64,000 nt of DNA from Candidatus Parcubacteria bacterium (GTDB lineage: Bacteria > Patescibacteriota > Minisyncoccia > Phycocordibacterales > UBA918), in the NCBI GenBank assembly GCA_046050355.1, contig JBJOPW010000004.1, forward strand, positions 5,800 through 69,799, in the 5' to 3' direction. The position numbers and the translations under genes were made by a program. Below are positions 6,371 to 37,495 of the stretch, one piece after another. The notes beneath the pieces were generated by a model, which saw only the letters and a list, made by a program, of their open reading frames with translations, searched no databases and had not been told where the DNA came from. Within the stretch, counting starts at the first letter, position 1, and every line of letters begins with the position of its first letter.

Positions 6371-6407
6371 AGAAAATACATCAGTAAGATACTGATGTAT
6401 TTTCTTA
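6371..6407. terminator. Perfect 17-bp-stem hairpin; probable bidirectional terminator
   Basis: aagaaaatacatcagta-aga-tactgatgtattttctt, lying between the 5245 gene and tRNA-Trp. Confidence 0.5.
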
Positions 6408-6415
6408 ACGAGTGC

Positions 6416-6486: not shown

Positions 6487-6526
6487 TGTGCGCACCATAG
6501 TACGCAAAAAACTAAAGAAAGGCAAA

Positions 6527-7438: not shown

Positions 7439-7459
7439 ATTCGTAGCGGCAGTGTAGCA

Positions 7460-7506
7460 AATAAAACAAAAAAAGAAACGCCGCCCGAGGGTGAGCCAGG
7501 GCGGCG
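7460..7506 (-). terminator. Rho-independent terminator downstream of the PRTase C-terminal fragment
   Basis: GC stem cgccgccc...gggcggcg followed (on the minus transcript) by a U-rich tract from the plus-strand aataaaacaaaaaaagaaa. Confidence 0.55.
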
Positions 7507-7556
7507 GTAGATGGCCTGATGATCACTAAGTGATGACGATTTGTTCGCCCGCTTGC

Positions 7557-7982
7557 TCAGGCTACTTGATGAGCCTCGATCTCAGCTTTGACCTTAGCAA
7601 GACGGTCGCTGTCCCATCCCTTGATGTCGAGTTGTGATAAAACCCAAACGACGTCAAGGAGTTCGAAGAAGGAATGGATCGTGTATCCTTCATGACGAAG
7701 ATGAGTGACCTCTCCTTGCTGCCGATCCATGAAGACGAAGTGGGTCATCGCCTTCACATCATAACCGTCGTTCGATTCGAGACGTTCGAGGGCTTCGAGT
7801 AACGAGCCGCCACTGGTCACCACGTTCTCGATGGTGAAATAGATGTGATGTTCCGGGTTGGGACGGCCGTTGACCCAGTAGCCACGTTGTCCGGTGGCAC
7901 CGTGAGTCTCCTTGAGCTTTTCGCGCATAATGCGATAGCCTAGCCGATGTCGACCGAACGTTCGAGGATCATAGTGGGTCAC
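7557..7982 (-). pseudogene. 3' fragment of a host type-I phosphoribosyltransferase (OPRTase/pyrE-like) gene, separated from its 5' part by the inserted element
   Basis: KETHGATGQ is HGEGG-like. The PRPP-binding motif IENVVTSGGSLLEALE matches VDDVITTGGT. The first ~4 codons (GTG, then PPM) come from element DNA across the attL core. Confidence 0.6.
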
Positions 7983-20765: not shown

Positions 20766-20776
20766 ACTCGATCAGG

Positions 20777-22639: not shown

Positions 22640-22655
22640 GGTCTTCTTCTTGAAT

Positions 22656-23420
22656 TTAGTTGCTAAAGTTCAGGCGAGCTTCGAGCTTGAGTATAGCATC
22701 TTTTCGTTCCCTGATCATGCTGTTCAGGGTGATCTTGCTTCCCATCTGGTGCTCGCGATTCAGCGTGGTCCGGAGCTCAGCAATCTCGCGTTCCAGTTTG
22801 TGAATCTCCCCGAGAATGACAGTGTGTTCCTTGGATGCCGAGATCGAGGCCGAAACGAACGTCCCGGTCCTGTCCGAGGTGATCAGCCCGATGACCTGGC
22901 TCTGGAATGCTTCATAGAGGGCATAAAAGTTGGTGGCGGGAAGCCGGTGAAGCTGAATGGCCTCCAGGAAGGCCGCCTGTGATGTCGAAGGCTTGTTCGG
23001 ATCGATCCATTCGGTCTGCCAACGATCCACCAACACGAGCTTGGACTTGTCGGCCTGGTTGATCCGCTTTTCCGCAACACTGATGGCGATCTTGCCCGCG
23101 TGCTCGAACGCCAGGATCAGCGGATATGGAATGGCCCGGTGCATGAAGGCTGCGACGCGATTGAGGCGAGCAGGATTCGACAGCTCGACCGAAAGGACGG
23201 CGATCTCCAGGTATTCTCGCTCGCTGTCCTGGAAGGGTGCGATGTTGATGGTGTCGGGCTTGAGCGTGTATTGCCAGCGGATGCGCCCGACATCCTCGCT
23301 CAGCGCCTTCCTGTCGGTCTGGTCTAGCTCTGCGTGATCGAGGAACATCTTCTTGTAGACCGGCTTGTCGAGCAAGCAGGCTTCAGGGATGCCAAGGCTG
23401 GAGAGGAAGGCGTCGATCAT
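22656..23420 (-). CDS. DUF4391-domain protein
   Basis: 254 aa. Sits between the SNF2 helicase and Mod in the same operon, a recurrent DUF4391 neighbourhood. Its start overlaps the helicase stop. Confidence 0.55.
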   Translation of the reverse strand: MIDAFLSSLGIPEACLLDKPVYKKMFLDHAELDQTDRKALSEDVGRIRWQYTLKPDTINIAPFQDSEREYLEIAVLSVELSNPARLNRVAAFMHRAIPYPLILAFEHAGKIAISVAEKRINQADKSKLVLVDRWQTEWIDPNKPSTSQAAFLEAIQLHRLPATNFYALYEAFQSQVIGLITSDRTGTFVSASISASKEHTVILGEIHKLEREIAELRTTLNREHQMGSKITLNSMIRERKDAILKLEARLNFSN

Positions 23421-26400
23421 GCTGCGGCTTGGATAACGAGGAAGCTCACAACCTCAAAATCGTCTCCGCCCTTGAGGTGATCTTTGGTGAGCGCCGTACC
23501 GCCACGGGAAAAGAGGCTCTCGACGCCCTTTTCTTCAGTCTTGCCGACGACGCTCTCTATGGCGCGATCCAGCAGCTCTCGATAGGCGCTCATATCGCGC
23601 CCGTTCTTGGTTTTGGTGTTAAGGGCGTCGATGCTGGCGCGGTCTAGCTCAGTCGCAGACGCGGCGAGCTTCTTGTATACGTCCAGGCTCTTTTTGGCCT
23701 GAAGGTGATTGAACACGATGGTGCCCGCCTCGGAGACATAGATGAGGTAGAATGGCGTGAGCGCGTAGCTGTCTTCGTTCTGCACCTTACCCTTAAGGTC
23801 GCGCAGGCAGAAGATCACGCCTGGCACGGCTTGGTCAATGTTGGGCGACACAACCGCGTGAAAGCCGGTTGGTGAGCCTTCCAGGCGCTTCAGGTTTTCC
23901 TTCATGAAGCTGGACAAATCCATGCGGAAGTCGTTCAGCGTCATGTCGGTGATGGAGACGCTGCCATCCATGTCCTCAAGATCGATGACGGCATCTTGGA
24001 GCTGCTGCATTTGTTTGCGACGGTATTCCAGATCGTTCATCTGCTTGTTTTCGTCATATTCGATGACGTTCTCTTCGCCGGTCGCGGAGATGTCCAAGAG
24101 CACCATGCGACCGCTCACGCGGGCTTCGAGGTTGATATACTCGTCGAGCTGCATGTTAGGCCAGAAATTGGTGAGCTGGATCGCGGCGTTCTTCGATCCT
24201 AAGCGGTCCACGCGCCCGAAGCGCTGGATGATCCGCACCGGGTTCCAGTGGATGTCGTAATTGACTAGCATGTCGCAGTCCTGAAGGTTCTGGCCTTCCG
24301 AAATGCAGTCCGTGGCGATCAGGATGTCGATGTCAGTCGTGGCATCGGGGTCGATCTTGTCGCGCTCTTTTGAAACCGGCGAAAAATTAGTCAGGATGCT
24401 GTTGAGGTCGCGCGGCAAGCCGTCGATGGTGCAGCGGTTGGTTCCACTACCCGTCACGAGCGCGCTGTGGAGGCCAAATTCCTTCAGCGCCCAGGTGTGT
24501 ATGTGCTTGAAAAGATATTCAGCCGTGTCGGAGAAGGCGGTGAAAACGATGACCTTGTTGTTGCCAGGGTTGATCGGCGTTTTGAGCTTGGCGGCAATGG
24601 TGTCCTTCAGCTTTTGGAGCTTGGCATCGTCCGCAGCCGCAATCTTCCGCGCCTCGTCGAGCAGGTAGCCTAAAAGGATGTGATCGGCTTCGAGGTCCTG
24701 ACGCATCCGGATGAGGTCCAGGTCCTGGATCAGCACCTTGACCTTTCGGCCAATCATAAGGTCTTCGAGTTCGGGAGAATCTGCCTCGATGTCCTCGATG
24801 AGCAATTCCTCGATTTCCGTAGCCTCATGAGCATCGATCTTCGCGAGGAAGTTGCCGACCTGAGCATGAATCTTCTCGACGGTGAGAGCGAAGGAATGGA
24901 TCGAGCTCTCCATCCGCTTAAGCATGTTGACGCGCATGAGGTGGATCAGGCTGCGCTCCCGGTCCACCTGCTTGAGCGTCGATTTCCCACCTTTGACTTG
25001 TTGGTCGTACTTGCGGCTGTAATCGTCCTGCTTGTCGGCGCGCACATAATCCAGGGGCGCGTAGGCCGCCAGAGAAAGCTTCTTGATTGAGCGGTTGATG
25101 TCCTTGAGCGGCGGGAACCGGCCATCCTTGTCGATGTCCGACTTCACATTCTGCGGCTTCAGACGCTCGGGGAATTTCCCGATTTCCGCAGTGTCGTAAT
25201 ACTTCTCGATATGCCGCCGCGACCGCGCGATGGTAAGCAGGTCGAGTAGCTTGAAATAGCCGAAGTTAAGGCTTTCGAGCAGCCCTTCGGTGGTGCGGCT
25301 TTCAGCCGGTAGCTTCAGCCAGGTGTTGAACTGCGTCTGCGCGCGACGGAGTGTAACTTCTATGCTTTGAATGCCCGCATCGGCTAGCGCTTTGTCCTGC
25401 CCTTCGGTGATGAAGGCGACCTGGTTCTTCAGGTCATTCAGGCGATTGTTCACCGGGGTGGCGGAGAGCATCAGGACTTTGGTTTTGACGCCTTTCCGGA
25501 TTACCTCGTCCATCAGCCGCTGGTAGCGAGTGATCTTGTCTTTGCTCGGGTTGTTGTTTCGGAAATTGTGGGACTCGTCGATGACGATGAGGTCGTAGTT
25601 GCCCCAGTTGATCGTCTCCAGGTTAATCTCACCGGAGCGACCCGTCTCGCGGCTCAAGTCTGTGTGGTTCAGGACATCAAAGTTGAAGCGATCAGCCGCA
25701 AGCAAGTTGCGCTTGTCGTTGATCGTGTAGACAGTCCAGTTTTCTCGGAGCTTCTTGGGCGCGAGCACCAGAACGCGGTCATTGCGCAGTTCGTAGTATT
25801 TTATGACGGCCAGCGCCTCGAACGTCTTACCCAAACCGACGCTGTCGGCGATGATGCAACCGTTGTAACGCTCAAGCTTGTCGATAGCGCCGAGAACGCC
25901 GTCTTTCTGGAACTTGTAGAGCTTGTTCCAAACTAACGTGTCCTTAAAGCCAGTCTTCGACCGTATGATGCTTTCCTCATCGATTTCCTCGATGAAGTCC
26001 CTGAAGATATTGAACAGGGTGATGAAGTAGAGAAGGTTCGCAGGCTTATCGGAGGCGAGGAAATCAAGGCTTTCAAGCACCGCATCCTTTGCATTGCGAA
26101 CGGCAGTTGGATCATTCCAGATTGTCTCGAACCAGTTGAGCAACTGCTTCGTTGCCTCCGGGTCTTTCGCCACGGTGTTCATCGCAAAGCTGTTGGATCG
26201 CACAACGCCAAGACCAGCGGCTGTAAAGTCCGAAGTGCCAGCGACGGCAACCACTTCACCAAGGGGTGGTTGAATGTGAAAAATATTCTGCGCGATAGGC
26301 GCTCCTGCGAGCTGTCGGACCTGAGCCTTCTTTCGAACCCATTCCGCACACTCGGCGGCGATGCGCTGGAGGTTCAGCTCATTCTTCAGGCCAATCTCTT

Positions 26401-26668
26401 CAGTGGTCCCGGCTAGAGGCAGCGGGAGAGCGGCATCAGGTCGCGCCAAGAGAATGCGCAAGTCCTGAACCTTGTTGAGCTCTGACTTCAGGGCGGAATA
26501 ACCAAAAACGGAAAACCAGGCGGTCAAAACCAACATTTTCGAGTCTGGGCTCAAGGCCGCTCGAAGTTCGTCTACGACCTTGCCGTGGACCTTGTTATCT
26601 AGAAGCATGTGGACTTTTGCCTTGCCTGAAGAGTCGTCGTATGTGGTTGATTTTTTATGGGAATCCAT
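23417..26668 (-). CDS. SNF2-family helicase with an N-terminal PLD-like nuclease domain
   Basis: SNF2 motifs I (ADSVGLGKT), II (DLIVIDESHNFRN), and V/VI (QRFGRVDRLGS). The N-terminal ~250 aa are PLD-like. Start placed at 26668 from an internal ATG with an AAAGG ribosome-binding site. Confidence 0.75.
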   Translation of the reverse strand: MDSHKKSTTYDDSSGKAKVHMLLDNKVHGKVVDELRAALSPDSKMLVLTAWFSVFGYSALKSELNKVQDLRILLARPDAALPLPLAGTTEEIGLKNELNLQRIAAECAEWVRKKAQVRQLAGAPIAQNIFHIQPPLGEVVAVAGTSDFTAAGLGVVRSNSFAMNTVAKDPEATKQLLNWFETIWNDPTAVRNAKDAVLESLDFLASDKPANLLYFITLFNIFRDFIEEIDEESIIRSKTGFKDTLVWNKLYKFQKDGVLGAIDKLERYNGCIIADSVGLGKTFEALAVIKYYELRNDRVLVLAPKKLRENWTVYTINDKRNLLAADRFNFDVLNHTDLSRETGRSGEINLETINWGNYDLIVIDESHNFRNNNPSKDKITRYQRLMDEVIRKGVKTKVLMLSATPVNNRLNDLKNQVAFITEGQDKALADAGIQSIEVTLRRAQTQFNTWLKLPAESRTTEGLLESLNFGYFKLLDLLTIARSRRHIEKYYDTAEIGKFPERLKPQNVKSDIDKDGRFPPLKDINRSIKKLSLAAYAPLDYVRADKQDDYSRKYDQQVKGGKSTLKQVDRERSLIHLMRVNMLKRMESSIHSFALTVEKIHAQVGNFLAKIDAHEATEIEELLIEDIEADSPELEDLMIGRKVKVLIQDLDLIRMRQDLEADHILLGYLLDEARKIAAADDAKLQKLKDTIAAKLKTPINPGNNKVIVFTAFSDTAEYLFKHIHTWALKEFGLHSALVTGSGTNRCTIDGLPRDLNSILTNFSPVSKERDKIDPDATTDIDILIATDCISEGQNLQDCDMLVNYDIHWNPVRIIQRFGRVDRLGSKNAAIQLTNFWPNMQLDEYINLEARVSGRMVLLDISATGEENVIEYDENKQMNDLEYRRKQMQQLQDAVIDLEDMDGSVSITDMTLNDFRMDLSSFMKENLKRLEGSPTGFHAVVSPNIDQAVPGVIFCLRDLKGKVQNEDSYALTPFYLIYVSEAGTIVFNHLQAKKSLDVYKKLAASATELDRASIDALNTKTKNGRDMSAYRELLDRAIESVVGKTEEKGVESLFSRGGTALTKDHLKGGDDFEVVSFLVIQAAA

Positions 26669-26774
26669 GCCTTTTCTAGTCTCATTATCATTCCACAGAT
26701 CGAGACTACAAGCAAAGGTTGGGTGACCGGATTCTGCAGACCCGGCCACCCGCGCTCCCACAAGGGGAGGGTCG

Positions 26775-26960
26775 TCAGGTCTCGCGGCGCGTGATCCGCT
26801 CTTGGAGCCATTCCAGCACTTCGCTTTCGACCCATCCGACCCGGTTCGGCCCGAGGTTTACCCGCTTGGGGAATGCTCCGACCTTTTCCAGCCTCGCGAC
26901 GTGTTGCGGCGAGTACAGGACCAACTCTTTGAGCTGGCGCTTTGAAAGTATCCTCATCAC
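26775..26960 (-). CDS. alpA: AlpA-family phage/island transcriptional regulator (Xis-like HTH)
   Basis: 61 aa; LSKRQLKELVLYSPQHVARLEKVGAFPKRVNLGPNRVGWVESEVLEWL is the AlpA motif. Confidence 0.7.
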   Translation of the reverse strand: MMRILSKRQLKELVLYSPQHVARLEKVGAFPKRVNLGPNRVGWVESEVLEWLQERITRRET

Positions 26961-27142
26961 GATCTCTCCATGGTGAAGAGCATCGCGATGCCCAGGGTTA
27001 CGACGTTCCTAGGTGTGAGGAGAGTAGTGCGAGATTAGTTGCCATGCCATAGAGTTGTGCCGCTCTTGATCCGTTCCTGCATGGCCAGTGTGCGCTTTGA
27101 TTGAACCGGGATAGGGTTTTCGATTAGACTCCTGCACATGAA

Positions 27143-27472
27143 ATGGAGGTACGAATGAGCAGTATTGACTTGAACGCTCTCGACTTGGCTGAACTCAAGC
27201 AGTTAGCCAAGGACGTGTCGAAGGCGATTTCGGGGTTTGAGGATCGGAAGAAGTCGGAGGCTCGGGCTGCGCTCGAAGCTCAAGCCAAAGAGCTTGGCTT
27301 CACGCTGAGCGAGCTACTCGGGACTGGTAGCGGAAAGACGCGCGCACCGACCGTCGCCAAGTACCGCCATCCCGAGAATGCTTCGATTACATGGTCTGGC
27401 CGTGGCCGTAAGCCGCACTGGTTTTCAGACGCGATCGCAAAAGGTGTCTCTCCCGAGTCGTTAGCGGTATAG
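27143..27472 (+). CDS. H-NS-family nucleoid-associated protein (xenogeneic silencer-like)
   Basis: N-terminal coiled coil. C-terminal TWSGRGRKPHWF is an H-NS DNA-binding motif. Confidence 0.7.
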   Translation: MEVRMSSIDLNALDLAELKQLAKDVSKAISGFEDRKKSEARAALEAQAKELGFTLSELLGTGSGKTRAPTVAKYRHPENASITWSGRGRKPHWFSDAIAKGVSPESLAV

Positions 27473-27800
27473 TCTCGTGGTGCGATCATACTCTCAGGCG
27501 CGGCCACGGCTGCGCTTGGGCCGCCTAGATCGTTGATCGACCGGAGGTGGTCTAGAAGGTGGACCGGATTCTCAGCGCTCTACAAAAGCTATATTTTTCA
27601 GTGCATTGGAAAATTTAGTGGTGCCCAGAGCCGGAATGGGATTGCCGGAACATTCCAACACATAGCCTTGCATTTTCAATTTCTTAGACCAAGTCGCGGC
27701 TCCAAGGGCAACACATCGCCGAACATCGCTGAACATACAATCACAACCCTTGAGGTGGACTAAAAGGTGGACTAGAAAAGGTGGACTGCGGGAGGATTCG

Positions 27801-28961
27801 ATGGTTCTCTTGAACAGCCTGAACCCACTGAAAGCAAAGAACCTAGTCGCAGGAAAGCACGCTGACGGCCAAGGACTTTGGCTAGTGAAGAGTGAGCGCA
27901 CTCGGGGAAAGTGGGTTCTCCGCGTTGTCGTCCAAGGAAAGCGTCGGGAAATGGGTTTGGGCCGGTGGCCTGACGTCTCCATTGCTGAAGCGCGTGAGTT
28001 GGCCGCGGAGGCGCGGAGGAAGCTCCGGACAGGCATCGATCCGATAGCTCAACGTGTTGAAGGCCGGAAGAAAGTCGTACGCCTAACGGTACAACAAGCA
28101 GTGGACGCGTGCTTCGAGGCACGAAAAGCAGAACTCAAGAGCGACGGCGAGGCGGGTCGCTGGATGTCTCCGCTCTCAGTCCACGTGCTGCCGGTGATTG
28201 GAAAGACTGCGATAGAGGACGTCGATCAACATGTGCTGAAGAAAGCTTTGGAGCCCATCTGGCACTCAAAGGCCGACACAGCTCGAAAAGCTCTAAACCG
28301 CCTCAGCTTGACCCTAAAGCATGCGGCTGCACTTGGACTGGAAGTAGACCTCCAGGCAACGATGAAGGTCCGGGCTCTCCTAGGCAAACAAAGGCACGTG
28401 TCCGAACACATTCCTTCGATGCCATACAAAGACGCACCGGCCTTCTATCGCTGGCTCTCCGAACAGACCTCGGCGGCAGCCCTACCGCTTCGCTTCCTCA
28501 TTTTGACAGCTGCCCGAACTGGAGAGGTGCGCTATGCTCGGCATAGCTACATTGAGGACAAAGTTCTTACACTCCCTCCCGAGATCACAAAGACCGGGCG
28601 TGAACACAAAATTCCGCTTACATCGGAAGCCGCAGCAGTGATCAACGCTGCGAAGCTGCAAGACAGCCAGGACCTGTTGTTCCCTTCCCCAACCGGAAAG
28701 ACCTTCTCTGATGCGACAATGTCACGATTAATGCAGCGTGAAGGCCTAGTTTATAGGCCCCATGGCTTCAGGGCCACATTCCGGACGTGGGTCGAAGAAC
28801 AAACTGACACTCCTCTCGAAGTGGCTGAGGCCGCACTCGGGCACGTCGTAGAGGGACAGGTCATCCGGGCCTACCAACGATCTGATCGACTTGAGAAACG
28901 ACGATCCTTGCTAGTCAAATGGAGCAAGTATCTGCAAGACACAGGACACCCCAACCCATAG
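27801..28961 (+). CDS. int: Tyrosine site-specific integrase (P4-like phage integrase family)
   Basis: GGGAGGA ribosome-binding site before the ATG at 27801. The C-terminal catalytic region HGFRATFRTW ... LGHV ... RAYQR has the R..HxxR..Y signature. Confidence 0.85.
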   Translation: MVLLNSLNPLKAKNLVAGKHADGQGLWLVKSERTRGKWVLRVVVQGKRREMGLGRWPDVSIAEARELAAEARRKLRTGIDPIAQRVEGRKKVVRLTVQQAVDACFEARKAELKSDGEAGRWMSPLSVHVLPVIGKTAIEDVDQHVLKKALEPIWHSKADTARKALNRLSLTLKHAAALGLEVDLQATMKVRALLGKQRHVSEHIPSMPYKDAPAFYRWLSEQTSAAALPLRFLILTAARTGEVRYARHSYIEDKVLTLPPEITKTGREHKIPLTSEAAAVINAAKLQDSQDLLFPSPTGKTFSDATMSRLMQREGLVYRPHGFRATFRTWVEEQTDTPLEVAEAALGHVVEGQVIRAYQRSDRLEKRRSLLVKWSKYLQDTGHPNP

Positions 28962-28976: not shown

Positions 28977-29738
28977 TCAAAGCCTGATTATTGTATCCTG
29001 AACCTGCAGAGCGCTCATCGCCGAGCAGAACTCAGTCAAGCCAAAGTCTCGATTAAATCGGTCATTAGACTCATGAACCAAAAGCGTCTTCGCCGCGAAG
29101 ACAGCGCCCGAATCACGTGCGAGTACTATAGCTCTCAAGTACTTCCGGTCCAAATCTCCAGAAATGCTACCAGACACAACCCGAAGATAACTGGTGTCTG
29201 CTCCTACAACATAGACACGATCTGCCTGGCAAAAGTAATAACCCTGATGATCGGGGTCAACGCTTTTCCGAGCAACTTGGAATGGAGAAACGTCATCATC
29301 ACCGATCGATCTGTAAGCGTCAAAGAACTTATCGAAGTTCTTGCGCTTAATGAAATTCATGAACCGGAATAGACCACAGTACTCAAAGAAAATTAACCCT
29401 CCAGAAACTAAGTCCCCAAACCCATCCGACCGGTAATAACGAAATGCACCAAGCAGAGTCCGTGCCTGCTGAATAGACTGACTATCTATCCCCAGACTCT
29501 CGCTAAGCGCTGAGTACGTTCTAAATTGCCTGTTTGGAACTCTCAAACACACGTCAACTTTTGCAAGAGACGAAAGTTCAACTTCTTCCCCCCTATAGAT
29601 TTTTTCAAGTGTCGCAATGTCTGGCGCACGCGAGCCAAAGACCTTCTTGAACGCCCGAGCAGTCTTGAAGCCGTCCGCTACCGCTCTAGCCAAAACTTCA
29701 TCACCGACCAACGTTCGAGCGCCTGACTTCAACACCAC
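28977..29738 (-). CDS. Hypothetical protein (orphan gene in an AT-richer patch)
   Basis: 253 aa; no recognised motif. Local GC is lower than the surrounding element. Confidence 0.4.
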   Translation of the reverse strand: MVLKSGARTLVGDEVLARAVADGFKTARAFKKVFGSRAPDIATLEKIYRGEEVELSSLAKVDVCLRVPNRQFRTYSALSESLGIDSQSIQQARTLLGAFRYYRSDGFGDLVSGGLIFFEYCGLFRFMNFIKRKNFDKFFDAYRSIGDDDVSPFQVARKSVDPDHQGYYFCQADRVYVVGADTSYLRVVSGSISGDLDRKYLRAIVLARDSGAVFAAKTLLVHESNDRFNRDFGLTEFCSAMSALQVQDTIIRL

Positions 29739-29943
29739 TACCCACTCCCGAATCTAACGATTCCTCATCAAATCGCAAGATTCTCATACCAGTCCCGGCA
29801 CTGCAAGATCAAGTCGCACGAGCGAGGTAACGATCCCAACAAACAACTGAAAATCGGTGTTTTACCAGTGACTCGTAGGCGTGCGACCATGGAGCCGCAG
29901 ATGAGAGCAACTGATCTGCGCGAACGTAGACGGGAGGAACAGA

Positions 29944-31272
29944 ATGCGCATCGCAATGGTTTACCCAGAAGTCTTCGACCTTGCACGGTTCAATGAAAAG
30001 CGGAAAGAGTTTCCGCCTTTTGGGGTAATGTACCTATCCGCCATGATGGAGCAGGCAGGGCACGTTGTCCAAGTATTTGCCATATCCTTCGAAACGAGTG
30101 CGATCGATTTCCGAGGCTTCGATGCAGTAGGATACTCCATCCCATCATCAGCAACTTTTGGTATAACAAAGAAGGTACGGTTTGCTAGTAAGTACGACGA
30201 GGGGGCACTGATCATGGCTGGTGGAGTACACGCAAACCTTTACCCACTGCAGACTCTGGATGAATTGGAACCGGACGTTGTTGGCATTGGTGAGTGCGAA
30301 CAGACCATACTCGACATCTTGGAGAGGGGTAAGAATGCGGATTTTGGTAACATCCTCGGAGTCGCCTTTAAGAAGAACGGGGAAGCAGTGAAGACACCTC
30401 CTCGTCGAGTAGATAAAGACATTGACTGGCTTCCACTTCCATCCCGACACCTCCTGCCTCGGTCAGACATTGTGATGAGCAATCGACTATCTAACACGGA
30501 CATCGAAATGGCCCACGTCATGTTCACACGTGGATGCCCGTTTCCGTGCAGGTTCTGTGCAGTTGCGCAAACTAAGATACAGTATCGCTCAGGCGCCAGC
30601 GCAAGACGTGAAATAGTTCACCTAATGGAAACTTATGGAATAGGTGGTTTCGCCATTGTCGATGACAATTTCATCGTTGACAAGCGTAAGGTTCATGACG
30701 TAGCCGAAAGCATCCAAGACCTCGGTGTAAAATGGTCGGCTCTTTCCCGAGTCGACACCATTGACAAAGAACTGCTCACGGCAATGGCCTCATCCGGATG
30801 CATCGAAATTAAGTTTGGAATGGAGTCAGGGAGTCAGAGAATTCTTGATGCAATGCAGAAAAACACGACCCCGGAACAGATCCTAGAGGCCGCAAGGCTT
30901 TCATATGAAGCCGGCATCAAGGCCAAGTTCTTTATTGTTCATGGTTATCCTGGTGAAAACATGGAGACCACAGCCGAGACAATCGCCCTCCTTGATAGAG
31001 CTAAAAGATATGTAGATCGAGTTTCGCTCTTCAGGTTTGCCCCATTGCCGGGGACATATGTCTACAATCACCCTGAAGAGTTCGGCCTCCGGGGAACGGA
31101 CCGGCAAGCAGACTGGGATGGCAACTGGGATAAATATCATATTTATCACAATGCGTACCACTGGTGGGGAACGGATGATCAATTTGAAGAGCTGAACAGG
31201 GCGCACACGGAGATCTCCAACTATATTGACGAAACTTGGCCAGCGACTTTTCAACCGCCCCAAAATGTGTAA
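29944..31272 (+). CDS. B12-binding-domain radical SAM protein (class B radical SAM family)
   Basis: N-terminal B12-binding-like Rossmann region, then FTRGCPFPCRFCAV (CxxxCxxC). 442 aa. Confidence 0.8.
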   Translation: MRIAMVYPEVFDLARFNEKRKEFPPFGVMYLSAMMEQAGHVVQVFAISFETSAIDFRGFDAVGYSIPSSATFGITKKVRFASKYDEGALIMAGGVHANLYPLQTLDELEPDVVGIGECEQTILDILERGKNADFGNILGVAFKKNGEAVKTPPRRVDKDIDWLPLPSRHLLPRSDIVMSNRLSNTDIEMAHVMFTRGCPFPCRFCAVAQTKIQYRSGASARREIVHLMETYGIGGFAIVDDNFIVDKRKVHDVAESIQDLGVKWSALSRVDTIDKELLTAMASSGCIEIKFGMESGSQRILDAMQKNTTPEQILEAARLSYEAGIKAKFFIVHGYPGENMETTAETIALLDRAKRYVDRVSLFRFAPLPGTYVYNHPEEFGLRGTDRQADWDGNWDKYHIYHNAYHWWGTDDQFEELNRAHTEISNYIDETWPATFQPPQNV

Positions 31273-31282
31273 AACTTAGAGA

Positions 31283-32029
31283 ATGGAGAGGATTGGAACT
31301 GTAGAAGCGGTGTTCCTACGCAAGGCACATGGCCGTGCTGTTGAGGAATCAACAGTCCTCAACTTAGTGGCTGATTTCGGGATCGTAGGGGATATCAACT
31401 TCTCGGCTTCGTCGCCTCGCCATTTGCTACTTAAGAGGATTGGACGTCCAGGCGATTGGACGGACAACGCCGGTTACTTCAATGAAAACGTTTCTTTCAC
31501 TTCTGAAAGTCTGAATTCGCTTCGTCCGGGAGACATCGTAAGAGTTGGCTCCGCAACTCTCCTCGTTCGTTCAAAAAATGAGCGGTGCAACATTTTTGCG
31601 CCAGAGGTCCGCGTGGCACGAGGCCTTCATTGTGTTTGCATAGACGCCGGATCCATTCGTCGTTCGGATGACATCATAAAGCTCGGTAGCGTTTCTATCG
31701 CAGAGGACAGTCGCGCGGCACTATTGGTAACGGGCCTCAGGGCTGTTCCGCTCGGAAGAGTGGTGACTTTTGAAGATGCATGCACTATGATTGGTGGCAG
31801 CCGCCCACACTTGCGGATCATTCCAAGACTGCTAAAGATTGCAATTACTTTGCATCCAACTGGGGTTCCATTTCACAGGTTAGTCAAATCTAAGGGTGAT
31901 CTAATTGACAACATTGTCACTGATCAGATGCTCCTCCTGGCGGCGGAAGGTATATCGACTTCAAACGGAAGAACTGTAAATCTTCAGTTCCGTCATGTTT
32001 TCGGGAGAAACCCATTTTGCGAAATGTAA
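31283..32029 (+). CDS. MOSC-like beta-barrel domain protein (putative)
   Basis: 248 aa. GD...PGDIVRVGSATLLVRSKNERCNIF resembles the MOSC PCxxL Cys motif. Moderate. Confidence 0.4.
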   Translation: MERIGTVEAVFLRKAHGRAVEESTVLNLVADFGIVGDINFSASSPRHLLLKRIGRPGDWTDNAGYFNENVSFTSESLNSLRPGDIVRVGSATLLVRSKNERCNIFAPEVRVARGLHCVCIDAGSIRRSDDIIKLGSVSIAEDSRAALLVTGLRAVPLGRVVTFEDACTMIGGSRPHLRIIPRLLKIAITLHPTGVPFHRLVKSKGDLIDNIVTDQMLLLAAEGISTSNGRTVNLQFRHVFGRNPFCEM

Positions 32030-32433
32030 GCTGCTTTGTCTCGATGGCAATTGAAGCTCGTGAAGCACTTAGTGAAGAGCTCTCCGCAATTAAGAGTGTG
32101 TGCAGTAGATTTGGTGTTAGAGCCCATGTCTTCCTAGATGAATACTCATTTGAGAAAGGCAAAGAATCCCAAATGATGGCGGAGGTCGTTTCGTGTATTA
32201 ATGGCTGTGATTTCTTGATTGCTGAAGTAAGCAAGAAGGCGATTGGGGTGGGGTGTGAGGTTGGCATCGCTGCAGCATTGGGAAAGCCGGTGATCTATTG
32301 TCGGCAGGCAGGGAGTCCAGCTTCGCTGACGGTTGGCGGACTGGCAAGTTTTACTCTGACTTATAGTGAAGCCAACGAACTTGCGCGGAAACTAAGTTTC
32401 GTATTAGAGAACAGGTTCTTCGAGTCCGACTAG
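32017..32433 (+). CDS. Nucleoside 2-deoxyribosyltransferase-like (NDT/SLOG-fold) protein
   Basis: CDFLIAEVSKKAIGVGCEVGIAAALGKPVIY matches the NDT-family D..IA..G...E.G.A.A.GKPV motif. An alternative start at 32044 is possible. Confidence 0.5.
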   Translation: MRNVSCFVSMAIEAREALSEELSAIKSVCSRFGVRAHVFLDEYSFEKGKESQMMAEVVSCINGCDFLIAEVSKKAIGVGCEVGIAAALGKPVIYCRQAGSPASLTVGGLASFTLTYSEANELARKLSFVLENRFFESD

Positions 32434-32548
32434 ATTTCGATGCTACTTGGACCGGATCCCGATCTTTTATCTGGGTGTCCGGCATCTAGTGTCTTAGTCA
32501 AGGCAATGAGAATTCATTGAAGTGAGGAAGTTTGAGAAGTGTTTCGAA

Positions 32549-32557
32549 GTGGGTCAC
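32549..32557. repeat. Internal third copy of the att core gtgggtcac, embedded in a ~25-bp att-arm-like sequence
   Basis: gagaagtgtttcgaagtgggtcaca (32534..32558) versus gagaagtgttccgatgtgggtcaca at the right junction: ~23/25 identical. Confidence 0.55.
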
Positions 32558-32811
32558 ATTTTGGAAGTTTCGGAGCCTTCCTCGTTGCTCCGGCTCATTG
32601 TTTAACTTGATGACGGTCGCCGTCACGGGTCAGTGTGTTGATCGTACAGGATCCATGAGTGGGGTTTCGAAGCGGTCCCTGCATACCTTGGAGTTCCGGG
32701 TAGCTCGGGTGGAGGATAGTGATATTCGAGGCGCTCTCCCGTGTGGAGTGCTCGCCAATGACAGTTTGGTCGCGCATGCTGTCAGGCGCAGGACGCTAGA
32801 AGACCCTCATT

Positions 32812-32846
32812 GACAACTCATGGTATAGTATCTATGTCTTACTAGC
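32812..32846 (+). promoter_or_regulatory. Putative sigma70-like promoter for the Ubl-E2-E1 operon
   Basis: TTGACA, a 17-bp spacer, then TATGTC; an AGAGG ribosome-binding site 7 nt before the ATG at 32865. Confidence 0.3.
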
Positions 32847-32864
32847 TAAATGTAGAGGTAAACC

Positions 32865-33107
32865 ATGTCCGAGAAATACAAATTCAAAGTTGAGAATGAA
32901 ACCTACGAGTGGGGCGATGCAACCATCACCGCAGCGGAAGTACGCGGGGTCGGTCCAGGGATTCCTGATAGCATGGATCTCTTTGTGAAGCTTCCCGGAA
33001 AGCCTGCGCGCTTAGTGTCGGATCCAGGCGAAGTCTTTGATCTCTCGAAGCCGGGAATCGAGAAATTCTTTGCGCAGAACTCATCGTCGGAAGCGGGCGC
33101 CAACTAA
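32865..33107 (+). CDS. Ubiquitin-like beta-grasp protein (Multiubiquitin-type single domain)
   Basis: 80 aa. Pattern KFKVENETYEWGDATITAAEVRG...PGIEKFF resembles prokaryotic Multiubiq/Ubl partners of E1/E2/JAB operons. The stop is 2 bp before the E2 gene. Confidence 0.45.
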   Translation: MSEKYKFKVENETYEWGDATITAAEVRGVGPGIPDSMDLFVKLPGKPARLVSDPGEVFDLSKPGIEKFFAQNSSSEAGAN

Positions 33108-33109
33108 TT

Positions 33110-33517
33110 ATGCCGTTATTGTTCGAAGATGACTACGAGTACTTGAAAAGTACTGGGCTAAAGTACGATGAGTACACGGACCAGCGCTTCTTGGTGGTCA
33201 GGGCTTACCCCGTTCCGGAGGGTAAGTACATCTTCGAAGGACAACCGGTTCGGACGGTCGATGTCCTGTCCATTATCCCGCCAAACTACAACACCGAAGG
33301 CTGCGACATGTTCTGGGTGCACCCAGCGATATCGCGTGCTGATGGAAAGCCCATTCCGGCAACTGGCGGCGACGACAGAGTCTTCGACAACACGACCTTC
33401 GTTCGTTGGTCCAGGCACTGGCCTGCCGGTCGATGGAGACCCAAGGTTGATACAATAGAGACCATATTGAGCCGTATCGACTGGGCCTTGCATAACCCAG
33501 ACCCTGCTGAAGCATGA
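33110..33517 (+). CDS. Prokaryotic E2-like (UBC-fold) protein
   Basis: 135 aa. IIPPNYNTEGCDMFWVHP has the HPN-like ... Cys arrangement. Overlaps the E1 gene by 4 bp (ATGA coupling). Confidence 0.5.
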   Translation: MPLLFEDDYEYLKSTGLKYDEYTDQRFLVVRAYPVPEGKYIFEGQPVRTVDVLSIIPPNYNTEGCDMFWVHPAISRADGKPIPATGGDDRVFDNTTFVRWSRHWPAGRWRPKVDTIETILSRIDWALHNPDPAEA

Positions 33518-34965
33518 GCCAACCCCGCATCACCCTCCTGCAATCACATCGAGAGCGCTTGGAGCGTTGGTTACCGTCTCATCCAGAGCATCACGAACGT
33601 GCCGCTGTAGTACTGTTCCGCTCGTTTGCACGAGAGGTACTGGAACAGACTCAATCAGAACGGCTCGTCTCGGTCGACGTGATCGAAATGACTGATGACT
33701 GGCTCGTGGAGAGCTCAGTCATCAGTGTCAAAGTCAACCTTCGAAAGCTTGTGGATCTGTATTTCCGCTGTGAGCAGGAGGGCTTACACTTAGGCTTCGT
33801 ACATAGTCACCCACTTGGTGCTGACGCCTTCTCGGGTCAGGACGATCAGAACGAACAAAACATCTTGCGGGGCTACGCTGGCTGCAATGGACGAGACTCA
33901 AGATTGGTGGCTCTTGTCTACGTCGACGGCGAGTGGATTGGTCGGGTGCGTTATGCGACCAAGCCAACCGAGAGCTCGCCTGTTCGTCACATACTTACAC
34001 TGGGGGAAACCCTTGCTGTACACCATTTGACCAACCCGGAGGGTGATCTGGCTACACTGGAGCGACAGGCGGCCGCTTTCGGTCGACCATTTAATCAAAA
34101 GCTTCAGTCTCTTAGAGTTGCAGTGGTTGGGTGCGGAGGTACCGGCTCACCAACTGCTACCCTTCTGGCTCGCGCAGGTGTCGGCGAACTTATTCTCATT
34201 GATGGTGACAACCTAGAGGAAAGCAATCTCAACCGGGTTCGAGGCTTGCGGAGAGATGATGTCGGACACAACAAGGCAGAGAGGCTGTGTTCGTACATCC
34301 GCTCCTTATCCCTGCCAACATCCGTGTCGTTTGTCCCCAATTATCTTGAGGACAATCGGGCAGCTGTCGACGCACTTTCCTCAGCCGATGTCGTATTCGG
34401 CTGCACCGACACCGTGGCAAGTCGAGAACTCTTAAACGAGGCTCTGTACTATTATGGGTTTGTGCTCATTGATTGCGGACTGTCGGGAGAAGTTGCCAGC
34501 ACTGCTGATGGGAAACCAAGGCTCATTGAGCATCGCGGTCGCGTAAGCACCGTGCAGCCCGAAACTGGAGCTTGCCTGCGCTGCCAAGGGGTCGTCACAG
34601 ACAACAAACTGAGATACGAGAGAGCGGTCAACGAGAACCCAGAGCTCAAGAAGCTCGACGCCAAAACGCTGCTCCGCGAACATTATCTAGTTGGCGGAGG
34701 CGAAGCCGCTCCGGGGGTCGGACCGTTCACTAGCGCAACTGCCGATCTTGCTGTCTCCTCACTATTTGAACTCATTCATCCATACAGACAACTGGGCGGC
34801 GATTTCCGTCCTGACAATATTTGGCAAGATTACTTGCATATGACTTATCACAGTAACGAGCCCCGAAACCTTTCTGCCGATTGTTATTGCTGTGGCACGC
34901 GCGCGATCCTACTGAAGCGTGAGCGTCAAGTTCTACTGGACAGACCGGCACTTGGTACGATTTGA
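33514..34965 (+). CDS. JAB/MPN (JAMM) metalloprotease fused to an E1-like ThiF/MoeB adenylyltransferase
   Basis: JAMM motif HLGFVHSHPLGADAFSGQD (HxHx7Sx2D). ThiF Rossmann motif VAVVGCGGTGSPTATLLARAGVGELILIDGD. C-terminal CxxC pairs. Confidence 0.8.
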   Translation: MSQPRITLLQSHRERLERWLPSHPEHHERAAVVLFRSFAREVLEQTQSERLVSVDVIEMTDDWLVESSVISVKVNLRKLVDLYFRCEQEGLHLGFVHSHPLGADAFSGQDDQNEQNILRGYAGCNGRDSRLVALVYVDGEWIGRVRYATKPTESSPVRHILTLGETLAVHHLTNPEGDLATLERQAAAFGRPFNQKLQSLRVAVVGCGGTGSPTATLLARAGVGELILIDGDNLEESNLNRVRGLRRDDVGHNKAERLCSYIRSLSLPTSVSFVPNYLEDNRAAVDALSSADVVFGCTDTVASRELLNEALYYYGFVLIDCGLSGEVASTADGKPRLIEHRGRVSTVQPETGACLRCQGVVTDNKLRYERAVNENPELKKLDAKTLLREHYLVGGGEAAPGVGPFTSATADLAVSSLFELIHPYRQLGGDFRPDNIWQDYLHMTYHSNEPRNLSADCYCCGTRAILLKRERQVLLDRPALGTI

Positions 34966-34966
34966 T

Positions 34967-35401
34967 ATGAATCTAGGCATTCCCAAGATATTTCTAAACT
35001 TCTGGAAGAAAGCACGGCTTCCAGAAATCCAAGAACCTACCAATCATGTGAGGCACTATCAAGCTGCCCTGATCTTGGAAAGAACACCAAGCAACTCGGC
35101 AATCGGAGATCGCGATTTTGTATTCGTGATCTATGAGACCGTTCCACGGTGGGCACTGTTTCGATGCCCCTGCGGCTGTAGCGAAGTCATCAGCCTACCC
35201 CTAGCTGCTCCACACAATCCTCGATGGGCCGTCTATGTCGACGAGGATGGCTTCGCTTCTCTGTATCCATCCGTTTGGCGCAACACTGGCTGCATGAGTC
35301 ACTTTGTAATTCGCTCAGGATGTGTATTCTGGGCGAATAAGAGCGGGGTCAGCCCATTTGAAGCCAGCCCAAATTTCTATAAGCCTCGCATTCCCAAGTA
35401 G
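34967..35401 (+). CDS. Cys-rich putative zinc-binding protein, fourth gene of the Ubl operon
   Basis: CPCGC...GCMSHF...SGC cysteine clusters. The ATG at 34967 lies 1 nt after the E1 stop; a longer ORF from 34919 is possible. Confidence 0.4.
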   Translation: MNLGIPKIFLNFWKKARLPEIQEPTNHVRHYQAALILERTPSNSAIGDRDFVFVIYETVPRWALFRCPCGCSEVISLPLAAPHNPRWAVYVDEDGFASLYPSVWRNTGCMSHFVIRSGCVFWANKSGVSPFEASPNFYKPRIPK

Positions 35402-35415
35402 AAGGGACGTGAGCT

Positions 35416-36837
35416 CTAGTATTCCCAGCGAACAAAATAGCCAGACCGTCCATAGCAGTCGTATCCGCGCTTGTCCTTATGTGCCTTGAGCATTGTCCCG
35501 GAGCTCTTCCTCTTGAACTCTTTTCCGCAGTAGGTACATGCGATCACCTGAAGGGGTCCACCAGAGTAGGTTGAAGGCCTGCGATTCACTCGACCCGCCG
35601 AACTTCCTCCTCGCTTTGTCTGGGCACCAAGCCGACCGCCTCCTCCAAAGTAGGAATTTTCTGGCAGCTCACCTGCTTTTGACAGTTCGACCTCGAAGCG
35701 CGGTTCGAACTTTTCTTCAAGTATCTGTGGCTTCTCAACTTTTGGATTAACCAGGGACTTGATTCCGGTTGACCCTGAGGCACCTCCAGTTCGATCCCAC
35801 ACATAGAAGTATTCGCGCGGAGACCCGTCCGATGGACGTTTGTAGCTTAGAGCGTAAGGTTCGACGACCCTCTCGTATCCGTCATAGGTTAGTCGGATAA
35901 GCCGTTGTTGAGACCCGGCTTCCAAGAAGACGTTACGAAGTTCTGCCGGAAAGAAGGCATCGCTTATGCGATCTGCCATACCGCTCGTTTCGAATACACT
36001 ATCGACGAACCGCGTGTACGCTTCTGTCGCGGTGTCGAAGTCTATTTTGCTTGCTGCCGGGCAAACTATGTATTTCTCCCATGCCGCCCGGAAGAAGGCC
36101 ATGGGGAGACCAAGGAGTATTTGCCGAGCTGAACCCGGACTTCGTTCAAAGATGGTCTTCTTGAGAAAGACGCTTGCAATTGTTGATCGATCAAGGTCAA
36201 TCCGATCATCAAAGAACGCAGCGTAAACTAGATCGTAGAGATCATGGGAGTGACGACGTTGCAGCAAGCATTTGAGCTTAGATGCCATGCCCTCTTCGAG
36301 AGCAACACATCTAAGATTTACTCTGCAGACATCTGAATCCGAATATGGATGAATAAGTGGAACCGTGCTCACTGGAAGATACAAGCGGTCGAACTCTGTC
36401 ACATCCATCCGAACTGAAATTTCCAGCGCGCTTTTCTGGCCATAGAAATCTTCGAAGAAGACCTTTCCCTTGTAGATTTTTCTGTCGGTGTTTTTGCCGA
36501 GATTGGCCCGTGCGGCTTCTTTGAAAGAGCTTCTCTCACTTACAAACTTGATACCCGATACAGCTTGAGCCATCTTGCAGCTACGTTCAATTTGAGCAGT
36601 CAGTTCATCCAAGTCAACTGCACGTTCAGTTGAGAAATCCAGGTCAGAGGAGAACCTGGTGTTCGGAAAGTACGCTTTTCGGAAGCAGTTTCCGCCCTTT
36701 AGGATGAGAAGGTCACTGAGATACTCATTTTGGTATATTGCAAACAGGAGCCAGCCGAAGACGTAGTCACGCTGAACATTCGAGGTATTGATCTCGAATT
36801 CAGCAGATTTCTGGTCGATTTCATCTCTCTCGATCAT
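35416..36837 (-). CDS. AbiEii/DUF1814-type nucleotidyltransferase fused to a WYL-like domain and a C-terminal zinc ribbon
   Basis: NTase motif LKGGNCFRKAYF...SSDLDFS. WYL-like LIRLTYDGYERVVEPYAL...EYFYVWD. C-terminal CTYCGKEF...C. Confidence 0.7.
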   Translation of the reverse strand: MIERDEIDQKSAEFEINTSNVQRDYVFGWLLFAIYQNEYLSDLLILKGGNCFRKAYFPNTRFSSDLDFSTERAVDLDELTAQIERSCKMAQAVSGIKFVSERSSFKEAARANLGKNTDRKIYKGKVFFEDFYGQKSALEISVRMDVTEFDRLYLPVSTVPLIHPYSDSDVCRVNLRCVALEEGMASKLKCLLQRRHSHDLYDLVYAAFFDDRIDLDRSTIASVFLKKTIFERSPGSARQILLGLPMAFFRAAWEKYIVCPAASKIDFDTATEAYTRFVDSVFETSGMADRISDAFFPAELRNVFLEAGSQQRLIRLTYDGYERVVEPYALSYKRPSDGSPREYFYVWDRTGGASGSTGIKSLVNPKVEKPQILEEKFEPRFEVELSKAGELPENSYFGGGGRLGAQTKRGGSSAGRVNRRPSTYSGGPLQVIACTYCGKEFKRKSSGTMLKAHKDKRGYDCYGRSGYFVRWEY

Positions 36838-37081
36838 GTGACTACTCTACACCAAATCCCAAGCTACGGCACCTTAAGGCGATGATGACGGTTTGGCCAA
36901 GGAACACAACCCGTATGGCACCTCTATGCTGCATCTGCTGTGTCTTGAGGCTTTTGATACTTCAAATTGTACTGCCACTGCGGGATCTTATTTGGAGTAC
37001 ACGCTGGTCTTTTAGGACAGAAGGTTAGAAGGTGGCTCAGGGACGTCTTCATCTCCTTTAGAGTTCGAGAAGTGTTCCGAT

Positions 37082-37090
37082 GTGGGTCAC
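37082..37090. repeat. attR core: 9-bp direct repeat gtgggtcac (right junction)
   Basis: Matches 7974..7982. Host PRTase sequence (AASVTH codons) starts here on the minus strand. Confidence 0.6.
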
Positions 37091-37495
37091 ACTGGCGGCA
37101 AAACCGGTGGCGGCAGTGGGGATGCCGATGATGATGGGTTGACGCCTTTCATCATCGGACAAAATGTCGCAGATGCGTTTGCCGATGAATCGTCCGCACC
37201 GCTCAGTCAGGGATGGGTTGTCGGTCAGGTCGCCACGACCATTGAAGTAGATGTGGCTCGCTACACCGCTTTTCAGTGTGAACGGATCTTCTGTCCACAC
37301 CAACATTCCATATTTGACCATTTCACGGATCAGGTCGATCTCCTCGTTTTCGAAGCGACGACCTGCACCGAATGGTGAAGTAAGTTCTGGCAAAGTACTA
37401 ATCCTTCCTGTTTGGGCCACTCCATCACGTATGGTGTGGCGGTTTGGCGATGGGGGTAGAGTACGCTTTGGCAAGTAAAAATGCAAGTACAGCAA
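37082..37495 (-). pseudogene. 5' fragment of the split host PRTase (OPRTase-like) gene; the ORF continues into element DNA to a stop at 37058
   Basis: KSGVASHIYFNGRGDL matches the OPRTase KSGRKSPYFFN motif. IIIGIPTAATGFAA is the GIPxAT region. It ends where the 7557..7982 fragment begins. Confidence 0.6.

Follow-up and report, generated by a model that had tools for sequence, protein, structure and literature searches.

An internal attachment-site copy bounds a recombinase-less Bub cassette in a composite serine-recombinase element of a Candidatus Parcubacteria genome

Stacking of discrete modules at attachment (att) sites is known from staphylococcal cassette chromosome (SCC) islands and from the tandems that integrative and conjugative or integrative and mobilizable elements (ICEs and IMEs) form with cis-mobilizable elements (CIMEs). 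Among these, ICESt1 and ICESt3 use tyrosine integrases. In the integration-dependent switches of mycobacteriophages, which combine a repressor gene with a tyrosine integrase, attP lies inside a gene and integration truncates the product. Here we describe a variant of site-specific accretion in a 64-kb stretch of a Candidatus Parcubacteria genome (contig JBJOPW010000004.1, hereafter the window), in which a 29.1-kb element encoding a large serine recombinase (LSR) holds at its right-hand end a 4.5-kb cassette, set off from the rest of the element by an internal copy of part of the attachment site. The cassette carries a Bub operon and an AbiEii-type gene. In type I Bub operons the BubAB fusion must be cleaved by the JAB domain and the DUF6527 protein, named BubE, is a serine protease; anti-phage activity has been shown for no Bub operon (PMC11601596).

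What is unusual about the locus is that the serine recombinase's own gene contains the attachment site, that cargo modules each bring a replacement recombinase tail together with a conserved far end, and that a Bub plus AbiEii-type module has base-exact edges in two clearly different elements. The arrangement offers a concrete route for shuffling defence operons between mobile elements and predicts an unorthodox LSR substrate pair, which is relevant to LSRs as genome-engineering tools. It also documents a defence-gene-laden element of alphaproteobacterial type in a small Parcubacteria genome.

The internal attachment-site copy and the limits of the element

The 25-mers at 32534-32558 and 37067-37091 are identical at 23 of 25 positions, with two mismatches, as given in the initial annotation (~92%), and the ungapped similarity is slightly longer than was claimed there, reaching 27/30 for 32529-32558 against 37062-37091. 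No further 25-mer match at three or fewer mismatches was found on either strand of the window. The similarity is above chance, no 25-mer match being present in any of 100 dinucleotide-preserving shuffles. The core of 9 nucleotides (nt), GTGGGTCAC, has exactly three copies in the window, starting at 7974, 32549 and 37082, all on the plus strand and in the direct orientation previously noted; 0.5 copies are expected by chance in 64 kb, and three or more were observed in 0/100 shuffles. The proposed derivation of the internal copy from an att site is borne out by intact attP sites in relatives (below), comparison with which identifies it as a P half-site followed by the core. On a matrix built from 27 family sites, the internal copy itself among them, it scores 39.3 bits, the maximum for shuffled windows being 9.2 bits, and it encodes DPLRNTSQT, which fits the family motif DGDPxRNTSRT.

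To the left of the internal copy lies a recombinase-tail relic (32478-32529; Table 1) that resembles the tail of an LSR homologue, P0019 (SSLPKILSAISRILDAG), with a score of 40 that is reached by 0/500 shuffles (loci and proteins of relatives are designated by L and P numbers). To the right of the internal core is a third sequence, the X arm, which is neither the P' arm nor the B' arm of the host gene. By eye, from an unscored alignment, X-arm DNA only partly resembles P or P' arms. An origin of the X arm as the P' arm of a lost recombinase gene was considered; the translated X arm resembles no recombinase C-terminus. Palindromic symmetry of the possible attP, attB and hybrid sites was never above that of random 69-mers and is uninformative on the pairing of arms. 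The tentative, decayed copy of P arm and core at 32653-32680 follows the internal copy at a distance of 123 bp on its right, a spacing that fits the 113-124-bp arrays of L034, L029 and L050. Such arrays in relatives could be cassette units free of cargo.

The element is inserted mid-gene in a phosphoribosyltransferase-like gene. Joining the two minus-strand halves of this gene, 37058-37495 and 7557-7994, at the core gives a gapless alignment with an intact orthologue of 242 amino acids (aa) (P0001, locus L006; 86% aa identity) from another Candidatus Parcubacteria genome, where miaA is a neighbour as it is in the window. Because the halves rejoin gaplessly at the core, the element corresponds to 7983-37081 (29.1 kb). 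Among 15 homologues of the target gene, only that in the window is interrupted, and the cassette alone is found in none. The host flanks have a G+C content (GC) of 0.41-0.54, mostly <0.50, compared with 0.49-0.54 for the right-hand cargo and ~0.55-0.58 for most of the backbone.

The attachment site is also part of the recombinase gene, the last LSR codons being formed by the att core and the P' arm (7983-8010). The core encodes G-D-P and the P arm encodes the conserved LSR tail xRNTSRT. The LSR has 4,757 homologues; those named among the best 120 are nearly all from Alphaproteobacteria, at 55-64% identity, and the closest are metagenomic, at 90-97%. Homologues are 490-537 aa long and continue ...DGDPxRNTSRT...; six of the seven closest that were read (492-529 aa) continue ...DGDPxRxTSRT and then diverge, the exception being the most distant, P0022. 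Read across the reconstructed attP, in which 7983 is joined to 37081, the LSR open reading frame (ORF) continues ...DGDPHRNTSRTLKEM... to 527 aa, and read into the internal copy it ends ...DGDPLRNTSQTSSLQ*. The tail encoded at the right end of the cassette (36924-37082) has the motif PQWxYNLKxQ in common with the tails of P0139 and P0019, at a score reached by 0/500 shuffles.

Intact attP sites are present in L007 and L008 (LSR identity 90%), L009 (91%), L036 (89%) and L062, the LSR of which falls in one 90% cluster with that of the window. These sites have the form GTTCGAGAAGTGTTCCGA(T/A/C)G-TGGGTCAC-CATCGGGG(G/T)CACTCAAGT..., with two further P-arm substitutions in L036. The left part of attR, the core and the right part of attL in the window together equal the natural attP of L007, L009, L036 and L062, with 37062-37090 identical to the L007 attP at 29/29 positions. 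Thus, the two outer sites make one attP and the 29.1 kb are one LSR unit. By these alignments, the repeated arm is a P half-site and at the same time the coding sequence of a conserved recombinase tail, the P arm presumably being the half-site bound by the LSR. In the 90% cluster of the window's LSR, the proteins are 476, 508, 508, 529 and 537 aa long because their tails differ; five different tails are found in this one cluster and the neighbouring cargo differs also (helicase, SMC-like ATPase, Bub). Integration is predicted to shorten the LSR from 527 to 476 aa, with loss of the PQWxYNLKxQ tail. This loss could constitute an integration-dependent switch on the LSR.

The cassette on a second backbone and related sites in other loci

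From left to right, the cassette consists of core, X arm, BubA, BubB, BubCD, BubE, the AbiEii/WYL gene, the recombinase tail, the P arm and the core. No recombinase or relaxase was found in 32558-37081 and P-core sites lie at both flanks, a layout of the CIME type. In accord with its earlier description as recombinase-less, Pfam searches and tblastn with the LSR detected no recombinase, recombinase remnant or relaxase in this segment, and tblastn with the LSR at very lax settings gave nothing credible as a second recombinase near 32.5 kb. No homology was observed between 32559-32864 and any family locus (blastn, tblastx). Ubl, Prok-E2_E, the JAB-E1 fusion and DUF6527/BubE together (Pfam) make up the type I Bub (6E.1/DUF6527) gene set, following the family definition in PMC11601596. 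A stop codon separates the ORFs of BubA and BubB, as it also does in L071 (below). The initial annotation had assigned to the cassette exactly a Ubl-E2-JAB-E1 operon and a nucleotidyltransferase-WYL gene; these genes are present, the WYL match being weak, but the assignment was incomplete, as BubE (34967-35401) and the recombinase tail (36924-37082, minus strand) are also there.

The AbiEii-type protein has a C-terminal extension of ~190 aa with a weak WYL match and a CxxC...H-type end. No AbiEi antitoxin gene adjoins the AbiEii-type gene (35416-36837). A circular form would place this gene directly downstream of the recombinase gene and on the same strand.

The same cassette is present on a different backbone in L071, a metagenome contig from the Joint Genome Institute (JGI), the BubCD homologue of which (P0140) is 98% identical. 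L071 has the family layout, with an LSR (P0029) of 63% aa identity, backbone DNA of 72-76% identity and, beside its tyrosine integrase, a second cargo unrelated to that of the window. In contrast to this divergence, 4951-9516 of L071 is 95.5% identical to 32528-37090 of the window over 4,568 bp, at 97-99% for the Bub genes and 86-94% for the AbiEii gene and the tail. At the left edge, the flanks beyond the P arm are unrelated and the P arms agree at 14/20 positions, identity rising to 59/60 from the core rightwards. At the right edge, identity continues across the tail and P arm (20/20) as far as the core, where it ends; beyond this core the window continues into the host gene and L071 into 70 bp followed by its own attP and LSR. 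As a cassette with the same edges is found in a clearly different element, it was acquired as a separate, recombinase-less unit.

These edges at both cores agree with the earlier proposal that 32558-37081 is an independently acquired module, and the suggested search for the cassette with a different partner thus gave a positive result. The companion search, for variants with the 7983-32548 element or the cassette alone, found none in exact-protein look-ups, in the LSR 90% cluster or in a second contig with the L071 recombinase. This second contig also carries the cassette and no empty cassette site was found.

In all relatives that offer sufficient sequence, the backbone (HTH protein, DUF3768, coupling protein, LSR and attP) is conserved, as is the P4-type tyrosine integrase. 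Between this integrase and the P arm lie 2.5-8 kb that are unrelated from relative to relative and encode a KAP NTPase in L007 and other genes in L009 (both more distant relatives), a SWI2/SNF2 helicase, a sulfotransferase and others in L062, and in L074 an SMC-like ATPase. This interval is a cargo hotspot. In its backbone, L062 is closest to the window (91% nt identity over 11.4 kb; 23 sister contigs); like its sisters, it has an intact attP and an internal P-core-X copy 3.3 kb further on, which enclose only the SWI2/SNF2 helicase gene, unrelated to Bub. The P-side tail at the L062 internal site, judged by eye from its flank, is of a different type from that of the window, so that the internal sites were not inherited from one ancestor. 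Between the X arms of the window, of L062 (internal site) and of two copies in L010, 13-18 of 24 positions agree; random pairs have their 99.9th percentile at 14.

Extra direct P-core copies are observed on the cargo side of attP in Mameliella (L029), Primorskyibacter (L034, 123-bp spacing), L033 and Sinisalibacter (L050), and five copies in the metagenome contig L010; the arrays seen hold at most five. In Mameliella L029, a 295-aa remnant of a second LSR (3630-4517), which covers residues 60-313 at 49-51% identity to full LSRs, stands beside an additional P-core copy 2.3 kb away from the genuine attP. P-core junctions also occur as arrays beside host genes in L010 and singly in metagenome-assembled genomes (MAGs) of Kaiserbacteria and Saccharibacteria. 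The plasmid collection contained no near match to the element, with only weak AbiEii matches to the cassette, and viral contigs had no match to the att pattern. A strict att pattern matched no reference genome and two metagenome contigs; a looser pattern gave 50 matches, with ~17 expected by chance, and family members were recognized by adjacent recombinase or coupling-protein genes.

Assembly of the composite

The comparisons show that the internal copy is homologous to attP, where exactly the cassette begins and ends, that a second backbone carries it and that such sites recur among relatives. We favour, with a probability of roughly 0.6, insertion of the cassette at the core by an LSR of this family, followed by integration of the composite as one unit. 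The internal copy (32530-32557) would represent the earlier P arm and core of the element, together with the remnant of a tail that is now dead. A discrete cassette would have joined at the core of the element's attP, or of an array, pushing the old P arm and tail inwards and bringing with it the X arm, the Bub genes, the AbiEii-WYL gene, a new LSR tail and a new P arm. Supply of a new tail would follow from the recombinase gene reading through attP. The crossover would have been site-specific within the 8-9-nt core, most probably performed by the family LSR between two sites, each with a P-type arm. The composite would then have integrated, or re-integrated, as one unit through the outer attP, the LSR of the 29.1-kb element inserting it into the phosphoribosyltransferase-like gene.

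Site-specific rather than homologous recombination is indicated because the junctions fall within the 8-9-nt core, the adjoining arms differ, the flanks are without homology and the ends are not transposon-like. A transposon-type insertion was considered and rejected, as neither terminal inverted repeats nor other signs of transposition were found and the apparent duplication is an att half-site. Since the core is the one that the LSR used to enter the host gene, the family LSR is the most economical catalyst. The two-site layout in relatives with an intact attP (L062, L071) suggests that the composite probably predates integration and that the 29.1 kb entered as one unit. We infer that it was the LSR that catalysed the joining, that a small circle was the form in which the cassette moved, and that each sub-element is still mobile by itself.

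Several points weigh against this reading. Canonical LSRs recombine attP with attB, or attL with attR together with a directionality factor, and two sites with P-type left arms are a nonstandard pair. An LSR reaction on two such sites is a prediction from the sequence, and binding of the X arm by the LSR would likewise be hypothetical. The backbones known to carry the Bub cassette are only two. A circular cassette, an empty site, an excision junction or either sub-element alone was not found in the data searched. Every contig retrieved by exact-protein look-ups (recombinase, AbiEii, BubCD) had the arrangement of the window, the complete composite being present in all contigs of three samples, and the recombinase 90% cluster contains neither a 527-aa form (whole-element circle) nor a 486-aa form (inner-element circle). 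The predicted junctions are GTTCGAGAAGTGTTCCGATGTGGGTCACCATCGGGGGCAC for the whole-element circle, GTTCGAGAAGTGTTCCGATGTGGGTCACATTTTGGAAGTTTCGG for the cassette circle, GTTTGAGAAGTGTTTCGAAGTGGGTCACCATCGGGGGCAC for the inner-element circle and GAGGATCATAGTGGGTCACATTTTGGAAG for the cassette alone in the chromosome, and the empty attB is predicted as GAGGATCATAGTGGGTCACACTGGCGGC. Lastly, the extra copy in Mameliella L029 lies beside a truncated second LSR gene, which points to tandems of whole elements and their decay as at least one source of extra copies.

The L029 remnant is the type of intermediate that would be preserved if two complete related elements had been fused, as a tandem or cointegrate, and the backbone of the second (LSR, transfer genes and tyrosine integrase) deleted. 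The outer module would then be the cargo and P arm of the second element, the internal copy a scar of the first element's P arm and core, and L071 would have obtained the cassette later by a second exchange. Decay of integrated elements to att-flanked remnants is moreover the accepted origin of CIMEs (PMC5704250). In the window, however, no LSR remnant adjoins the internal copy and 32559-32864 lacks homology to any family backbone. Random deletion would not stop exactly at the core in two backbones, nor would it yield similar X arms on unrelated cassettes, and transfer of the cassette to L071 would still require crossovers at both cores. We regard a fusion followed by decay as unlikely.

Accretion on the chromosome seems more improbable still. 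The Bub cassette would have been resident at the phosphoribosyltransferase site as a recombinase-less remnant and the 24.6-kb element (7983-32548) integrated beside it, or the reverse; entry of the cassette, presumably mobilized in trans, at the attR that a resident element had formed in the chromosome was the mechanism initially proposed and is one possible route. SCC composites and ICE-CIME tandems have exactly this order of attL, element, hybrid site, cassette and attR, and the P-core arrays beside host genes (L010) and the single junctions in Kaiserbacteria and Saccharibacteria MAGs are consistent with such a history. The chromosomal step is, however, not needed, as the same two-site architecture is present on unintegrated relatives with an intact attP (L062, L071), an occurrence that would also fit accretion at an earlier time and subsequent cis-mobilization. 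The survey of 15 target homologues, in which only the window's gene is interrupted and the cassette never stands alone, also argues against it, as do the uniformly complete composites of the three samples. An origin of the internal copy by chance, or a regulatory role without connection to recombination, has only the short length of the copy in its favour and was rejected as having virtually no likelihood, given the shuffles without a match (0/100), the homologous attP of >15 relatives and the coincidence of the copy with the cassette boundary.

A broader form of the preferred reading, insertion of the cassette at the core by the family LSR, is advanced tentatively. The family might be an integron-like platform in which the recombinase itself inserts and swaps multi-gene defence cassettes bounded by P arm plus core and by a conserved X arm, each cassette supplying a new C-terminal tail for the LSR. 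The 113-124-bp arrays would then be empty cassettes, and the platform would cross phyla, from Alphaproteobacteria to bacteria of the candidate phyla radiation.

Remaining genes of the element and comparison with known systems

From left to right, the element starts with the LSR, two coupling-protein-like ATPases, DUF3768, a helix-turn-helix (HTH) protein and a replication-relaxation protein, after which come a type III restriction-modification pair, DUF4391 and an HKD/SNF2 helicase. These are followed by AlpA, H-NS and the P4-type tyrosine integrase, a block of radical-SAM, MOSC and deoxyribosyltransferase-like genes, the internal copy, the Ubl/E2/JAB-E1/DUF6527 operon and the AbiEii-type gene. 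The 29.1-kb element is probably mobilizable. A four-gene defence block occupies 17772-26761, comprising a type III restriction subunit, an N6/N4 methyltransferase, DUF4391 and the HKD/SNF2 helicase, which is 1,114 aa long and matches PADLOC C3a139 (E 1.7e-137); GC falls to 0.46-0.50 over 21-23 kb. At 26775-28961, AlpA, H-NS and an intact P4-type tyrosine integrase lie inside a serine-recombinase element, the integrase being conserved family-wide with 75-86% nt identity to L007, L009, L062 and L071. Homology to relatives ends sharply at ~27613-27618, upstream of the tyrosine integrase. This position may be a second attachment site, in which case the element family would have two integration systems.

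The inner cargo (28977-32433; GC ~0.49) is absent from all examined relatives and has only a weak PADLOC candidate match (PDC-M51A). It encodes nucleoside 2-deoxyribosyltransferase-like and MOSC/MGMT-DNA-binding-like proteins, and may be an uncharacterized nucleotide-modifying defence system. Relatives of the recombinase, coupling proteins and tyrosine integrase are mainly alphaproteobacterial (Rhodobacterales, Rhizobiales) and the GC of the element is ~0.55; the Candidatus Parcubacteria flanks (1-7982 and 37091-64000) have a GC of mostly 0.41-0.50 and contain type IV secretion system (T4SS)-pilin genes. P arm and core are also present in the Kaiserbacteria and Saccharibacteria MAGs (L022, L042, L054, L061). 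An alphaproteobacterial-type element in Parcubacteria, together with P-core sites in Kaiserbacteria and Saccharibacteria, suggests spread across phyla.

Table 1. Features of the composite element and of related arrays (window coordinates unless a locus is named)
Feature	Position	Strand	Basis or remark
Host-gene C-terminal fragment, chromosomal B side of attL	7557-7994	-	Joins 37082-37400 against P0001
LSR gene, integrated form	7969-9399	-	476 aa, ends ...DGDPL*; Pfam Resolvase PF00239, Recombinase PF07508, Zn_ribbon_recom PF13408
attL core GTGGGTCAC	7974-7982	+	Host gene resumes exactly here
P4-type tyrosine integrase, far boundary of variable cargo	27750-28961	+	Pfam; Arm-DNA-bind_3 domain
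Inner cargo block	28977-32433		Unknown 253-aa gene, B12-binding radical SAM, MOSC/MGMT-like and nucleoside deoxyribosyltransferase-like genes; Pfam
Recombinase-tail relic	32478-32529	-	In-frame stop, …TSSLQ*ILIALTKTLDAG; ~16 codons left of internal copy
Internal P half-site	32530-32549	+	GTTTGAGAAGTGTTTCGAAG; minus strand encodes LRNTSQT; 17/20 identical to outer P arm
Internal core GTGGGTCAC	32549-32557	+	Left edge of cassette common to L071
X arm, cassette-side half of internal site	32558-32581	+	ATTTTGGAAGTTTCGGAGCCTTCC; unlike both P' and B'
Possible further decayed P arm + core copy (tentative)	32653-32680	+	16/20 identity to 32533-32552
BubA, ubiquitin-like protein, 80 aa	32865-33107	+	Pfam Multi_ubiq, E 5.6e-7
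BubB, E2-like, 135 aa	33110-33517	+	Pfam Prok-E2_E, E 1.5e-33
BubCD, JAB peptidase-E1 fusion, 483 aa	33514-34965	+	Pfam ThiF, Prok-JAB; PADLOC E1-E2 models match E1 part
BubE (DUF6527)	34967-35401	+	Pfam DUF6527, E 3.9e-20
AbiEii-family nucleotidyltransferase with C-terminal extension	35416-36837	-	Pfam AbiEii, E 4.5e-20; PADLOC AbiEii, E 2.5e-44, and WYL, E 9e-4 (weak)
Cassette-carried recombinase tail	36924-37082	-	Circular form would extend LSR to 527 aa, …HRNTSRTLKEM…IPQWQYNLKYQ…
Host-gene N-terminal fragment, B' side	37058-37495	-	ORF, orthologue alignment
Outer P half-site + core (attR)	37063-37090 (P 37063-37082, core 37082-37090)	+	Right edge of cassette common to L071
P-core arrays	L010 1-1440; L034 2740-2987; L029 2298-4714		Direct copies

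As in the mycobacteriophage switches, attP lies within a coding sequence and integration alters the C-terminus of a protein; here, however, the gene is the serine recombinase's own, whereas the switches involve a repressor gene and a tyrosine integrase. With integron arrays the family shares discrete cargo units that are stacked promoter-proximally beside a recombinase gene, each bounded by a recombination site, and the occurrence of the same cassette on different platforms. In contrast to integrons, there are no IntI and no attC hairpins, the only tyrosine recombinase being of the P4 type with Arm-DNA-bind_3. The sites are serine-recombinase half-sites, the cassettes are multi-gene (3-4.5 kb) and arrays do not exceed five site copies. 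Like type I Bub operons, the cassette has the genes for Ubl, Prok-E2_E, the JAB-E1 fusion and DUF6527/BubE in a single operon, which lies on a mobile element beside a WYL-containing gene, but BubA and BubB are separate, whereas their fusion is described in all type I operons (PMC11601596).

SCCmec composites, with their Ccr LSRs and recombinase-less pseudo-SCC elements, resemble the present element in the use of an LSR, in the short direct repeats at the ends and between modules, and in the stacking of a recombinase-less module on a recombinase-bearing one. The likeness to SCC composites drawn in the initial annotation therefore stands for the core repeats but not for the target, which in SCC is the 3' end of rlmH/orfX and here is a 242-aa phosphoribosyltransferase-like gene cut mid-gene. 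The closest relatives of the recombinase are alphaproteobacterial; the homologues listed, mostly from Alphaproteobacteria, are unnamed or entered as 'recombinase family protein'. Also unlike SCCmec, the att site is inside the recombinase gene, the modules carry a replacement recombinase tail and the composite is also found on unintegrated forms.

Accretion and cis-mobilization of CIMEs by ICEs and IMEs, described for ICESt1/ICESt3 of Streptococcus thermophilus (PMC5704250), likewise involve an att-flanked module without integration genes and a chimeric internal att site, and share with this family gene capture by a mobile element and decayed-element intermediates (here in L029). They differ in that ICESt1 and ICESt3 integrate at gene 3' ends, whereas here the serine-recombinase core is within a coding sequence, and in that unrelated cassettes here share the conserved X end, with no decayed-element remnant visible in the window. 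ICE/IME-CIME accretion is as close a precedent as SCC, and the element works like both while being a member of neither.

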